A stretch of DNA of 64,000 bases from a virus (lineage: Duplodnaviria > Heunggongvirae > Uroviricota > Caudoviricetes), in IMG/VR virus record IMGVR_UViG_2778261375_000003; one strand, written 5' to 3'. This document shows, piece after piece, positions 33,976 through 37,826 of the stretch (position 1 is the first letter of the stretch; each line of letters starts with the position of its first letter). Below the pieces are notes generated by a model, which did not search any database, had not been told where the DNA came from, and was given only the letters and a program-made list of their open reading frames with translations. A program made the position numbers and the translations under genes.

Positions 33976-34277
33976 TGACAATTCAGGAAATTCCGCTGAC
34001 AGCGGACAACCAGCAGTTCTGCATCGTCCTGGGTGGTGTCACCTGGCGGATTAGCATCATATGGCGCGATCTGTACTGGATTATGGACCTGCAGAACGAC
34101 AGAGGGGAGCCGGTAATCTCCGGTATTCCTCTCGTCACTGGTGCTGACCTGCTGGCGCAGTACGCCTGTATGGGGCTTGGTTTTAAGCTGGTGGTGGTCT
34201 GTGATGACAACACACAGGATTACCCCACAAAAACTGACCTGGGCGGTCGCAGCCATTTACTGGTATCAACGGAGTAA
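33975..34277 (+). CDS. Tail/baseplate protein (hypothetical)
   Basis: 100 aa, ATGA-coupled. Confidence 0.5.
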   Translation: MTIQEIPLTADNQQFCIVLGGVTWRISIIWRDLYWIMDLQNDRGEPVISGIPLVTGADLLAQYACMGLGFKLVVVCDDNTQDYPTKTDLGGRSHLLVSTE

Positions 34278-34279
34278 GC

Positions 34280-35347
34280 ATGTCACAGAACTGGATGAGA
34301 CATTTCGAGCTGCAGCTTGTGGACGGGAACGGTCAGGGAATTGAGCTAAGTGATTTCAAAGTCACCTTTACGATCGACTGGTTCAACATCAGCAGCGCGT
34401 CCCGGGTAGGGACTATCAAAATTTATAACCTCTCGGCAGATACTGTGAACCGAATTACCGGGCAAGAGTTTTCGAAAGTGCGTCTGATTGCCGGTTACGA
34501 CGGTATCGCGCCGGAGGTGTCAGCAAGCGACGTCGGGACAGTGCGGGAAGTTGACGCGGCGGACGTGGGCCAGAGTGATGGTCGCAACTACGGACTGATT
34601 TTCAGCGGTGAAATTCGCTACTCGGTTACAGGAAAAGACAGTCCGGTTGATTCCTACGTCCTGATTCAGGCAGCAGATACTGATCTGGCTTTTGCCACCA
34701 GTATAACCTCACAGACGCTGGCTGCCGGTTACACGGTCGCTGATGTAAACCGTGCGCTGATGAAAGACTTCGAAGCCAAAGGCGCGACCGAAGGCCTGAC
34801 GCCTGAAATGCCTGCTACTGTATTCCCCCGGGGGCGGGTACTCTTTGGCATGACGCGGCATCTAATGGATAACGTAGCCGGGCAATGTGGCGCAACATGG
34901 CAATTCGTGGATGGTCAGCGCCAGATGGTGGCGAATAACGAATATGTTCATGAAGCGATTGTGCTCAACAGCGCTACCGGGCTTATTGGCATGCCGCAGC
35001 AGACTATCGGTAACGGCGTAAACGTCCGCGCGCTTATTAATCCGAACATCCGGGTTAACGGACTTATTCAGCTGGATCAGGCTTCCGTGTATCGTACCGC
35101 CTTGTCGAACAACGATATCGCGATGGCCGGTGGGCAGATCACTGACCAGAACACGGACGGAAATATTACGCTAAGCGGCACCACATCGCAGCCTGCCAGC
35201 ATCGCAACGGATGGCGTTTATATTGTGCGCGGGATTATGTACACTGGCGACACAAGGGGCCAGGCGTGGTACATGGATATGATGTGCGAAGCGCGCGGTG
35301 CGGCGGATCTTCGTTCGGCGTCGTCTTTACAGCGTGAGGTAGGATAG
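34280..35347 (+). CDS. Baseplate hub-like protein
   Basis: 355 aa following tape measure and small tail proteins. Confidence 0.5.
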   Translation: MSQNWMRHFELQLVDGNGQGIELSDFKVTFTIDWFNISSASRVGTIKIYNLSADTVNRITGQEFSKVRLIAGYDGIAPEVSASDVGTVREVDAADVGQSDGRNYGLIFSGEIRYSVTGKDSPVDSYVLIQAADTDLAFATSITSQTLAAGYTVADVNRALMKDFEAKGATEGLTPEMPATVFPRGRVLFGMTRHLMDNVAGQCGATWQFVDGQRQMVANNEYVHEAIVLNSATGLIGMPQQTIGNGVNVRALINPNIRVNGLIQLDQASVYRTALSNNDIAMAGGQITDQNTDGNITLSGTTSQPASIATDGVYIVRGIMYTGDTRGQAWYMDMMCEARGAADLRSASSLQREVG

Positions 35348-35700
35348 TGAAAAAGTGGATTGTTATTGGACTCTGTTTCCTTCCGGGGTTCGCATTTGCT
35401 GCGAATCCTGGCGGTGTCACGCTTCAGTGTGGTGGCTACAAATTAGAGTTGATTCCTGATTCATTGTTCAGGATTAATGGTGAGACAGTTACCTCCCAGA
35501 AAATCAAAACGCTCGGCAACGGTAATGGAATGAAGGCGGATATGGGGCTTATGCCAGCCAAAGACGGTAACAATTACGGTTTCGAGTTCATTCGCCGTCC
35601 GGGTACCGAAACGCGATTCCTGAATGTCCAGCTTCTGCAGAACAGCATGGATGCGCCGAAAATCATCGGATCTTTCCCTTGTAAAAAAGTGGCTGGGTGA
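35347..35700 (+). CDS. Secreted small protein with signal peptide (probable moron)
   Basis: GTG start; MKKWIVIGLCFLPGFAFA signal peptide; two Cys; followed by weak hairpin/T-run about 35727-35765. Confidence 0.5.
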   Translation: MKKWIVIGLCFLPGFAFAANPGGVTLQCGGYKLELIPDSLFRINGETVTSQKIKTLGNGNGMKADMGLMPAKDGNNYGFEFIRRPGTETRFLNVQLLQNSMDAPKIIGSFPCKKVAG

Positions 35701-35849
35701 AGGTAACCTGAAATTCGTAACGCCTGAAAAACAACAAAATGTGCTCTAAAAACTGTTGTTTTTTGAGACGAGCGATTACACTGCACTGACTTTTTGATGG
35801 TGGATTGCCATCGATATGCTACTTCATTAAAGCCAGGAATAACTAAAAC

Positions 35850-36581
35850 ATGAGTTTAGCGCAGCCAAAATCAGGAGAACTGTTAGATCTTCTGACTCCT
35901 TCATTAACTAAGGGTGAAAACCTTCTGAGTGAGTTTGAAATCCATCGAATCATTCGTGAAGCGAAGAAACTACCTGAACGTTATCAGGGGCTATCAATTG
36001 AAGGCTTAGCTAAGCTTGTTCTTGGTGAAATAGATGAAGGATGTTCACTCTGTGAGCGGGGGTTGAGAATAGCGCCTAACGATCCAGTTTCTTTTTGTAA
36101 CTATACGATTGCGCTGCGTAACTTAGGTTTGCATGCTCGCCAGTATGTGATGATTCAGAAAGCATCTGATTCACTTAATCCAACGATATTGGCTGAGGTT
36201 GCTACAATTTCTGCATACTGGGTTGATATCGATTTGCTTGAAAAGGTGATGCCGATGCTAACTGCAATGGAAGTACCGCGCCCTGAAGATATGGGCAAAT
36301 GGTATGACACGCTCAATTATCTGCATACCCAAAAAGATCATGCTCAGGAGCTAAAAACTATTGGGCGGCTCATGATGAACGTTGCAGAAAAGTACCGCGC
36401 TCGTCTTGCTGGCGCTCATGCTTTTTATGTAATGTCAGAACTTGATACGCTGTTCGTTGAAGTCAAAACAGACGATCCAGTGCTTCTTTCGCAGATGAAT
36501 AATGCCTTGGCTGATGAGATTATTATTGCGGGGCTTGCGGATTCAGAATGCGTCGGATGCTTTGAAGCCGGGGAACTCTAA
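35850..36581 (+). CDS. Hypothetical helical protein, gene 1 of two-gene moron
   Basis: 243 aa; preceded by 150-bp AT-rich intergenic; stop overlaps next ATG (TAATG). Confidence 0.55.
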   Translation: MSLAQPKSGELLDLLTPSLTKGENLLSEFEIHRIIREAKKLPERYQGLSIEGLAKLVLGEIDEGCSLCERGLRIAPNDPVSFCNYTIALRNLGLHARQYVMIQKASDSLNPTILAEVATISAYWVDIDLLEKVMPMLTAMEVPRPEDMGKWYDTLNYLHTQKDHAQELKTIGRLMMNVAEKYRARLAGAHAFYVMSELDTLFVEVKTDDPVLLSQMNNALADEIIIAGLADSECVGCFEAGEL

Positions 36582-37009
36582 TGTCGGTTGAGCATACCTG
36601 TTTTCTTGAATTGGCTAAGCATTCCCTGGCTCTAAACGGTGAGATGTGGACGAGAAATGCTATTAGCCGAGCATACTATGGTATGTACCATTCCGCCTTA
36701 CGGATCACCAACAATCTGGTACCGACCGCTACACAAGATGGTGAAAAACTAAAAGGTGGAGTTCACATGCGAGTCTATACGGCCTTTTGTAGTGGTGAGG
36801 CAGCTGCACTTAACGATGTTGATGTTAACGCAGTAAAGAAAATCGGCGTTAAACTGAAAATGACGCATGCCCAACGTGTTAATTCTGATTACAAGCTTGA
36901 GCGGAAAATCAACCGGATTACCGCGAGAAGTGTAATTCTGGATGCGGAAGAGGTCGATGCAATCGTTAATCAATTACTGAAGATTGGTGATGACTCGTTA
37001 ACTGCATAA
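36581..37009 (+). CDS. HEPN-like protein, gene 2 of two-gene moron
   Basis: 142 aa; N-terminal helix pair FLELAKHSLALNGEMWTRNAISRAYYGMYHSALRI resembles the HEPN N-terminal pattern; assignment by pattern only. Confidence 0.45.
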   Translation: MSVEHTCFLELAKHSLALNGEMWTRNAISRAYYGMYHSALRITNNLVPTATQDGEKLKGGVHMRVYTAFCSGEAAALNDVDVNAVKKIGVKLKMTHAQRVNSDYKLERKINRITARSVILDAEEVDAIVNQLLKIGDDSLTA

Positions 37010-37030
37010 GCTGAAATTTCTCAAAATTCA

Positions 37031-37055
37031 AACCCGCCACTTGGCGGGTTTTTTG
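37031..37055 (+). terminator. Rho-independent terminator ending the moron cassette
   Basis: aacccgccacttggcgggtt hairpin plus tttttt. Confidence 0.75.
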
Positions 37056-37073: not shown

Positions 37074-37826
37074 ATGGCAGTATCTGACCAGACCCGCAGC
37101 GGCGACCTTGCCGAAACATTTAAATCTGAACGGGAAACAACAAAGAACCAGATCCGTGTCGCCTTGCCTGGCATTGTTCAGTCATTCGCTCCTGATGCGG
37201 TGACGGCGGTTGTACAGCCTGCTATCCGTTACGTTGAAATTGATAACGACGGCAACCGCATTACCAAAAATTACCCATTGCTGGTGGATGTGCCAGTGGT
37301 ATTCCCGCGTGGCGGAGGCTGTACGCTAACGTTTCCAGTTAAAGCCGGTGATGAATGTTTGGTGATTTTTGCCGATCGTTGTATTGATTTCTGGTGGCAG
37401 AGTGGCGGGATACAGGAGCCGGTCGATGACAGAATGCATGATTTATCGGATGCGTTTTGTATTGTCGGTCCCCAGTCGCAGGCAAGGAAGATTAGCGGTA
37501 TTAATACCAGTGCCACACAGTTGCGTAGTGATGACGGCAGCACCTATTTTGAGCTTAATCCTGATACCAGGAAAATTAAAATTGTCGCTCCGGGGGGCCT
37601 TGATGTGGTTGCCCCTCTGGCTGATTTTTCTGAGAAAGTAACCATTCATGGCCTGTTAACCTGGATGGGAGGCATGGTGGGGTCTGTTGTTTCTGGTGTG
37701 GCTTCAAAAATCACTGGTGCTGTTGAGTTTTTGGGTAGCGTGAAGGCTAACGGCAAGCCAATCGATGATACGCACACTCATGGTGGTGTTCAGCGCGGTG
37801 GAAGCAATACCGACGGAGTAAAATGA
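37074..37826 (+). CDS. Baseplate central spike protein (gpV / Gp138-N-like)
   Basis: 250 aa, upstream of W- and J-like baseplate genes. Confidence 0.6.
   Translation: MAVSDQTRSGDLAETFKSERETTKNQIRVALPGIVQSFAPDAVTAVVQPAIRYVEIDNDGNRITKNYPLLVDVPVVFPRGGGCTLTFPVKAGDECLVIFADRCIDFWWQSGGIQEPVDDRMHDLSDAFCIVGPQSQARKISGINTSATQLRSDDGSTYFELNPDTRKIKIVAPGGLDVVAPLADFSEKVTIHGLLTWMGGMVGSVVSGVASKITGAVEFLGSVKANGKPIDDTHTHGGVQRGGSNTDGVK

Follow-up and report, generated by a model that had tools for sequence, protein, structure and literature searches.

A conserved signal-peptide protein at the hub-spike junction of SEN34-like prophages as a candidate periplasmic exclusion factor

Why should a tail operon carry, between the genes for its baseplate hub and spike, a gene for a small protein that appears to leave the cytoplasm? 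The question is raised by a stretch of 64,000 nt, here called the window (IMG/VR record IMGVR_UViG_2778261375_000003; Caudoviricetes). Its prophage combines lambdoid-type regulation with a SEN34-like (Brunovirus-type) contractile tail, whose genes run in the order sheath, tube, chaperone, tape measure, Dit-like, Pam3-gp18-like plug, hub, secreted-protein gene, two cargo genes, spike, wedge proteins, and fibre. A complete holin/endolysin/spanin cassette is present elsewhere in the same prophage. A preliminary description of this DNA had placed a 117-aa protein with a Sec signal peptide and two cysteines between the hub gene and a two-gene insert, had given it a weak hairpin terminator of its own, and had read it as a likely periplasmic factor of lysogenic conversion. 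Here, 33 loci from species-representative genomes, 80 IMG/VR loci, and several isolated phages were surveyed, and the conservation, signal-peptide, and Pfam statistics were taken from a family alignment of 117 members. The window has the following features around the hub-spike junction.

34280-35347, + strand: baseplate hub gene, 355 aa (PHROG 196 'baseplate hub', E=5e-89; Pfam E217_GP41 match below cutoff)
35336-35340, + strand: Shine-Dalgarno sequence GAGGT, within the hub coding sequence and 6 nt 5' of the GTG start, read from the sequence
35347-35700, + strand: secreted-protein gene, 117 aa, GTG start (PHROG 3443)
35701-35849, + strand: AT-rich intergenic region, 149 nt, 37.6% GC, containing the hairpin 35724-35766 and going with the downstream cargo cassette
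35850-37009, + strand: two-gene cargo, 243 aa and 142 aa (PHROG 22649 and 5176)
37030-37051, + strand: strong intrinsic terminator, AAACCCGCC-ACTT-GGCGGGTTT followed by a T run (terminator scan and cross-locus comparison)
37074-37826, + strand: baseplate spike gene (Pfam PF18352, E=3.6e-43, and Apex motif), the right-hand conserved flank of the slot

The 117-aa reading frame after the hub gene and before the two-gene insert was confirmed, and the same ORF is annotated by NCBI PGAP in E. coli A15, in a region 97% identical to the window. Its GTG start shares 1 nt with the hub stop codon (TAGTG), the G of TAG being the first base of GTG. The protein matched PHROG 3443, a family of unknown function, with E=1e-46. 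Its relatives fall into 390 clusters when grouped at 90% identity; every one comes from Enterobacterales, and a Pfam domain is present in none of them; 358 IMG/VR loci carry the family, and about 6% of complete E. coli genomes match a 1.1-kb probe made of the hub 3' end and the secreted-protein gene. Because there are 390 such clusters and dN/dS against close alleles is 0.05-0.12, the ORF is far beyond chance: it is a real gene under strong purifying selection. The C-terminal two-thirds of the protein are highly conserved in the 117-member alignment. The median pairwise identity across loci was 0.68 for the secreted protein and 0.67 for both hub and sheath, and the idea of a fast-evolving gene was rejected, since the divergence equals that of hub and sheath and the local drop in identity reflects mosaic allele replacement.

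A profile search of 1.84 billion representatives returned 45 family members from one phage lineage only. P0121, P0149, P0160, P0161, and P0163 were rejected as remote homologues; their long, multi-stretch matches come from unrelated repeat proteins that share a 'DGNLYG...LLQ'-like motif. No Pfam match was found for the single protein or for any of the 117 members scanned at E<=10, and MliC (PF09864) was among the profiles that matched none of them. The secreted protein also had no match in NCBIfam or in a sequence-profile search of the PDB, it hit no family among the PADLOC defence-system profiles at E<=0.1, and by sequence it did not fall into the avidin/streptavidin family. In the literature covered, which concerned SEN34, Mulock, GZ7, Brunovirus, and related phages, nothing was found on its function or on virion proteomics.

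Export was assessed by heuristic scoring of Sec/SPase-I features, namely a positively charged n-region, an h-region of at least 8 hydrophobic residues, and small residues at -3 and -1. Two segments of the protein were distinguished.

35347-35400, + strand: signal peptide, aa 1-18, MKKWIVIGLCFLPGFAFA (from sequence features; the features, not the sequence, are kept up family-wide)
35401-35697, + strand: mature domain, 99 aa, predicted all-beta barrel

The signal peptide is laid out as a basic n-region (MKK), a 12-residue hydrophobic h-region (WIVIGLCFLPGF), and an A-x-A site (AFA followed by A). SPase-I cleavage is predicted between A18 and A19, that is, after AFA18, so that MKKWIVIGLCFLPGFAFA is separated from ANPGG. 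By the same heuristic, the Sec signal peptide given in the preliminary description is a property of the whole family: K or R occurs among the first 6 residues in 102 of the 117 members, a hydrophobic core in 115, and a small -3/-1 site in every one. The segment is the most variable sequence of the protein, and its physico-chemical features are nonetheless kept. The two cysteines described earlier are C28 and C112 of the mature part, both invariant across the 117-member alignment; a third one, C10, lies inside the signal peptide and is not conserved. At 29% identity the signal peptide and both cysteines are still present, for example in Klebsiella phage ST16-OXA48phi5.2, where the ORF is extended upstream. 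Lipoprotein (SPase II) status was ruled out for the window protein, the lipobox being defined as [LVI][ASTVI][GAS]C at the end of the h-region: in the segment I-G-L-C10 the residue at -1 is L, and the cysteine itself is not a conserved one. The only members with a lipobox are the fused variants P0139 and P0164, in which a lipoprotein signal is fused ahead of the domain at the same genomic position. Because the signal and the cysteine pair are conserved, lipoprotein-fused variants exist, and related baseplates lack the protein, the product is almost certainly an extracytoplasmic, non-virion protein, exported to the periplasm and predicted to be soluble there.

The AlphaFold2 model built on the family alignment had a mean pLDDT of 83 (about 90 in the mature part and about 50 in the signal peptide) and contains seven long beta-strands. 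C28 (codon 35428-35430) is on the first strand and C112 (codon 35680-35682) on the last, and a barrel-closing disulfide between them is plausible in the model. Sequence variation falls in the signal peptide, the first two strands, and portions of the intervening loops; an attempt to read a conserved face from loop conservation was dropped as the pattern was too unclear. Foldseek returned no match with E<0.3 in the PDB and nothing significant among the BFVD viral models. In the fold comparison, matches had 2-14% identity, and avidins, Cap15, and other unrelated barrels outscored MliC/PliC. The predicted fold thus says generic 'small binding barrel' and no more specific identity.

The position of the gene is informative about its status. 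In Pam3, the plug, hub, and spike are encoded by the consecutive genes gp18, gp19, and gp20, and none of the six baseplate proteins is a counterpart of the secreted protein (PMC11633184). In PSTCR3 and AbTJ, which have the same baseplate type and no insert, the hub and spike genes are adjacent or overlapping and the terminator is absent. An HMM search found no homologue of the secreted protein in yong1, EKP1, PSTCR3, Magia, or AbTJ. The Hafnia phage yong1, whose hub is 78% identical to that of the window, has other cargo and the terminator without the secreted-protein gene, and in EKP1 and the Burkholderia phage Magia the slot is occupied by other small proteins with signal peptides. Because the gene is absent from phages of the same baseplate type in which hub and spike abut, the secreted-protein gene, the cargo, and the terminator are to be regarded, on comparative gene order, as an accessory, moron-like insertion between hub and spike.

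No member of this insertion is older or more constant than the secreted-protein gene, which is an accessory gene fixed since ancient times and not a fresh moron. In all loci surveyed it lies immediately 3' of the hub gene, the two either overlapping or being no more than about 12 nt apart, and the distance from its stop codon to the spike gene ranges from 22 to 2355 nt. The hub-spike interval holds at least 27 unrelated cargo families, including HEPN-like pairs, other signal-peptide proteins, membrane-anchored proteins, a T5orf172-type protein, and an Mrr-like nuclease, and even loci that share at least 95% identity with the window in the secreted protein carry a wide range of cargoes. In loci with different cargo, identity resumes at about 37030. 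A terminator with a GC-rich stem and a T run lies about 20 nt 5' of the spike ATG wherever the secreted-protein gene or cargo is present, and its stem shows compensatory changes between genera; only in one locus, L010 from Pseudescherichia vulneris, does it stand directly 3' of a secreted-protein gene. There is strong support for the protein being a conserved accessory that SEN34-like (Brunovirus-type) temperate myophages can do without, and for its gene being the fixed first one of the insertion.

How is the gene expressed? The weak hairpin terminator that had been assigned to it (35724-35766) did not survive analysis. This A/U-rich hairpin has a 17-nt loop and an insignificant folding energy (z = -0.87; 36 of 200 shuffled sequences folded as well), it was not detected by the terminator scan, and one base of its stem is altered without compensation in L012 and L019; on these grounds it was rejected as a terminator. 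The strong terminator of the region is the one at 37030-37051, after the cargo. The 149-nt intergenic region is inherited with the HEPN cargo and not with the secreted-protein allele. A crude consensus scan, as well as inspection by eye, found no sigma-70-like promoter on the + strand of 34200-35347. The base composition of the secreted-protein gene (48.0% GC, GC3 52.5%) is tail-like, the tail genes having 49-54% GC, and the cargo insert has 44% GC and a GC3 of 38-41%. Translational coupling to the hub is strongly supported for every intact locus by the start-stop arrangement. Because of this coupling, the failure to find a promoter, and the tail-like composition and divergence, the late tail operon is, as far as the sequence can tell, the sole certain route of expression. 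To judge from the conserved downstream terminator, some transcription that is not antiterminated passes through the region; it could start at cargo promoters.

These results divide the reading of the preliminary description (the moron concept is reviewed in PMC3594210). Export and a non-virion nature stood, given the conserved signal, the cysteine pair, the lipoprotein fusions, and the absence from same-baseplate phages, whereas a stand-alone moron unit was not supported, because no promoter was found for the gene, it is coupled to the hub, and it is tail-like in GC and GC3. Likewise, the gene is missing from syntenic relatives (yong1, EKP1, PSTCR3, Magia, and AbTJ) as expected of a moron, but its base composition is not distinct from that of its neighbours. 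Lysogenic conversion is unproven, since the only certain transcription is that of the late tail operon.

The alleles of the gene are exchanged as cassettes, and one module was delimited by the sliding identity of the window against L019 and L012.

35290-35620, + strand: exchangeable allele module, consisting of the hub C-terminal tail and the first ~270 nt of the secreted-protein gene

Its flanks are at least 90% identical at the DNA level in loci with a different allele. The last ~150 nt of the hub gene serve as the conserved left arm for allele exchange, the last ~55 nt being swapped together with the secreted-protein gene (identity profiles against L019, L012, L005, and L011). A megablast comparison with E. 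coli phages gave 97.8% identity through the hub gene and ended at 35315, ~30 nt before the hub end; the secreted protein encoded by those phages is only 57.6% identical to that of the window. The cargo, from ~35650 to ~37030, is a second exchange module. In L010, the hub gene is followed by four tandem units of ~620 nt and then by the terminator and the spike gene. Each unit contains a 261-nt hub 3' fragment (the copies being 70-96% identical) and a different secreted-protein allele. This array, one case in ~120 loci, resembles an immunity-gene array, as judged by analogy.

Here, we consider what the protein may do. It is an uncharacterised phage-encoded envelope protein embedded in a tail module, which is a known kind. 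A role as a periplasmic superinfection-exclusion or entry-blocking factor fits best because of the tail-tip position, the envelope-directed and defence-rich neighbourhood, the cassette-wise exchange of alleles, the stacked array, and the occasional tethering as a lipoprotein, and we regard it as a serious possibility, held with somewhat less than even confidence. The protein would be exported via Sec and oxidised by DsbA, and in the periplasm it would act as a soluble, non-enzymatic blocker of an envelope step in phage entry. Its target may be the tail-tip complex of an incoming related phage or a host envelope component required for DNA delivery. Alleles would be swapped as cassettes of the hub 3' end and most of the gene, and stacking them would broaden the protection.

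Several observations sit uneasily with exclusion. It would require expression in the lysogen, yet no promoter was found, and translation is coupled to that of a late gene. Nor does any co-variation single out a phage target. The gene does not diverge faster than core tail genes do, only a generic fold was matched, and the array is a single case.

Other explanations share part of this evidence. The late tail operon is the only certain route of expression, given the start-stop overlap with the hub, the absence of a terminator between the two genes, and the failure to find a promoter, and the protein could have a late lytic role in the periplasm other than exclusion: lysis timing as a sensor or antiholin like T4 RI, protection of the wall from the tail-borne muralytic domains of neighbouring virions (lysis from without), or keeping progeny off debris. 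At its C-terminus the tape measure protein (TMP) does have a muralytic domain, which is homologous to PDB 7q47 'Endolysin' (E=9e-14) and to 9vvp Gp29 and in relatives is an SLT domain. However, the allele is uncoupled from the TMP lysin type, since the secreted protein of L005 is 91% identical to that of the window although the two TMP C-termini differ, and the TMP C-termini of L012 and L019 differ in spite of a common allele. The prophage already has its complete lysis cassette elsewhere, and the conserved downstream terminator implies non-antiterminated transcription, so we consider such a role unlikely. The independence of allele type from TMP C-terminal lysin type also led to the rejection of a specific TMP-lysin inhibitor model. 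Distinctly unlikely, in our view, is the lysogenic-conversion reading proper, in which the protein benefits the host, for example by inhibiting, in the manner of PliC/MliC, host lysozymes or some other exogenous enzyme that damages the envelope. Neither MliC (PF09864) nor any other family was matched by the 117 members at E<=10, the fold comparison ranks avidins, Cap15, and other unrelated barrels higher, and the failure to find a promoter and the tail-like composition also weigh against it. The restriction of the family to one phage lineage (45 of 1.84 billion representatives) speaks in the same direction, and its spread over hosts with lifestyles as unlike as those of E. coli, Photorhabdus, Pantoea, and Yersinia favours a role centred on the phage.

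The fixed hub-spike position, the coupling to the hub, the core-like composition and divergence, and the correlation with hub and Dit would also be expected of a virion or assembly component that builds or decorates the hub-spike complex, its hydrophobic N-terminus then being no export signal. This is highly improbable: the conserved A-x-A site, the invariant cysteine pair, and the lipoprotein-fused variants indicate export, the gene is absent from closely related baseplates, a four-copy allele array exists, and the six-protein Pam3 baseplate has no counterpart (PMC11633184). The Mantel correlation of the secreted protein was 0.48 with Dit and 0.47 with the hub, both physically linked, and 0.08-0.15 with the spike. 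Mantel co-variation was set aside as a means of identifying a partner (spike, wedge, or other tail proteins), because only linked upstream genes correlate.

The exclusion reading has precedents in its logic (Cor/Llp, HK97 gp15, P1 Sim, and T4 Spackle), and the secreted protein is homologous to none of them. Cor of phi80/N15/T1-like phages and Llp of T5 are outer-membrane lipoproteins that block the phage receptor FhuA; they are small, exported, non-enzymatic, non-virion proteins encoded in or beside the tail or receptor-binding cluster. The secreted protein is likewise small, apparently exported, and encoded at the tail cluster, and some PHROG 3443 members are outer-membrane-type lipoprotein fusions. 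It differs in lacking any sequence or family match to Cor and Llp and in being a predicted soluble SPase-I substrate, and its gene is co-oriented with and coupled to the hub, whereas Cor and Llp are separately transcribed. HK97 gp15 and T4 Imm are inner-membrane superinfection-exclusion proteins, and gp15 is encoded by a moron inside the tail cluster. The likeness lies in an accessory gene set between essential tail genes and tied, functionally or by position, to tail-tip and DNA-entry proteins; gp15, however, is a membrane protein with its own promoter and terminator, while the window protein is predicted to be soluble and periplasmic, with no promoter detected and a terminator only after the cargo slot. 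Closest in predicted localisation are T4 Spackle (Sp) and P1 Sim, small soluble Sec-exported periplasmic exclusion proteins that act after adsorption, Sp on the tail-tip lysozyme of the hub-spike complex. The window protein shares with them the Sec signal, the small size, and the predicted soluble periplasmic state. Spackle is helical, in contrast to the predicted beta-barrel, and in the co-variation tests nothing points to the TMP lysin or the hub-spike complex as the target of the window protein. As to MliC/PliC, the difference is that PF09864 matches none of the 117 members, the inhibitory loop motifs are not recognisable, and avidins score higher.

The orphan toxin-tip/immunity arrays of CDI, Rhs, and pyocin systems offer a further comparison. 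In L010, a conserved 3' fragment of the upstream gene and a divergent exported-protein gene are repeated four times, and in the window exchange of the allele also takes in the last ~55 nt of the hub gene. In contrast to those systems, the hub does not end in a toxin domain, the part of the hub that is repeated is the conserved and not the variable one, and only one array was seen in ~120 loci. We also put forward, as a doubtful extension of the exclusion reading, that PHROG 3443 may be a new polymorphic family of periplasmic exclusion or 'immunity' proteins dedicated to the contractile-tail tip. Its alleles would be exchanged and now and then stacked as cassettes of the hub 3' end and the gene, like orphan immunity arrays, each blocking the entry of a cognate subset of related myophages, and the hub-spike junction with its conserved terminator would be a dedicated place where defence cargo, envelope-directed or other, can dock. 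Should the exclusion role prove true, an uncharacterised and widespread family would join the short list of periplasmic superinfection-exclusion proteins, and the passage of contractile-tail phages through the periplasm would become more accessible to study.

Whatever the function of the protein, the hub-spike junction of SEN34-like prophages is a cargo hot spot. Its fixed flanks, the 3' end of the secreted-protein gene and the conserved terminator, make it useful in practice for mining Enterobacterales prophages for defence and envelope-modifying genes. In the window, the second cargo gene is HEPN-like, with the R-x6-H motif RAYYGMYH and a weak match to PADLOC HEPN_IX (E=0.009). The two-gene cargo of the window type occurs in a subset of loci only and is one among many alternatives for the slot.

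Two annotated homologues of the secreted protein (PHROG 3443), which in the window lies between the baseplate hub gene and the cargo genes, are listed without a signal peptide because their GenBank starts are placed too far downstream. The SEN34 protein (L001:9001-9342) is given as 77 aa (SEN34_20), and that of ST16-OXA48phi5.2 (L003:5953-6279) as 92 aa (QBP28333); the database entries therefore conceal the secreted nature of the family. In Pseudescherichia vulneris NBRC 102420 (L010:1-3000), four units of ~620 nt each stand in tandem, and each of them consists of 261 nt from the 3′ end of the hub gene and a distinct secreted-protein allele, the second of which is apparently truncated (106 aa). 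This arrangement resembles the arrays of orphan immunity cassettes.

In two phages without a PHROG 3443 gene, different small signal-peptide proteins fill the hub–spike interval. In Elizabethkingia phage EKP1, an unannotated ORF of ~80 aa rich in Cys and Thr (L039:4020-4300) lies ahead of a secreted form of the SEN34_21 domain. Burkholderia phage Magia encodes a secreted protein of 123 aa, gp21, in reverse orientation (L041:3957-4328, minus strand).

Features of the window discussed here
35850-37009: two-gene cargo (243 aa + 142 aa; PHROG 22649 and 5176)
37030-37051: intrinsic terminator ~20 nt ahead of the spike start codon (ATG), with an equivalent position in L001–L043
32801-33385: C-terminal domain of the tape-measure protein (residues ~483–617; RNNNPGN motif)

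The two cargo genes overlap at start and stop, and their GC content is low. The second protein contains a HEPN-like R-x6-H motif (RAYYGMYH) and gave a weak match to HEPN_IX in PADLOC (E = 0.009). A divergent version (27% identity) occupies the equivalent slot in Trabulsiella (L037). The cargo is probably a toxin–antitoxin or defence pair. By our reading of the sequences, the same slot at other loci is occupied by a coiled-coil protein of 408 aa whose C-terminus is T5orf172/GIY-YIG-like (L021:10428-11654), a membrane-anchored protein with an Mrr-like restriction-endonuclease domain (L036:10147-11034), and a recurring two-gene unit of ~195 aa + ~140 aa (L006, L025, L028, and L031), all of which look like defence candidates.

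The terminator before the spike gene is kept across genera, and its stem shows compensatory changes, such as ACCCGCC/GGCGGGT, AACCTGC/GCAGGTT, and GGCCGC/GTGGCC. It is absent from the phages with abutting hub and spike genes (PSTCR3 and AbTJ).

The tape-measure C-terminal domain is homologous to 9vvp Gp29 (E = 1e-20) and to PDB 7q47 "Endolysin" (E = 9e-14). In related phages, the equivalent position is taken by another C-terminal domain (SLT, PF01464), and thus the tape measure has a modular muralytic tip.

Window 42203-64000 is ~98% identical to E. coli plasmids of ~90 kb (e.g., pEC258-2) and carries P1-like genes for an Icd-like protein, KilAC antirepressors, an SLT protein, and a tail fibre; it is therefore a P1-like phage-plasmid segment. 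As assembled, this segment directly adjoins the SEN34-like prophage, and the boundary may be either genuine or a product of assembly. One strain, PK-F-10122, carries the DNA of this segment on its chromosome.
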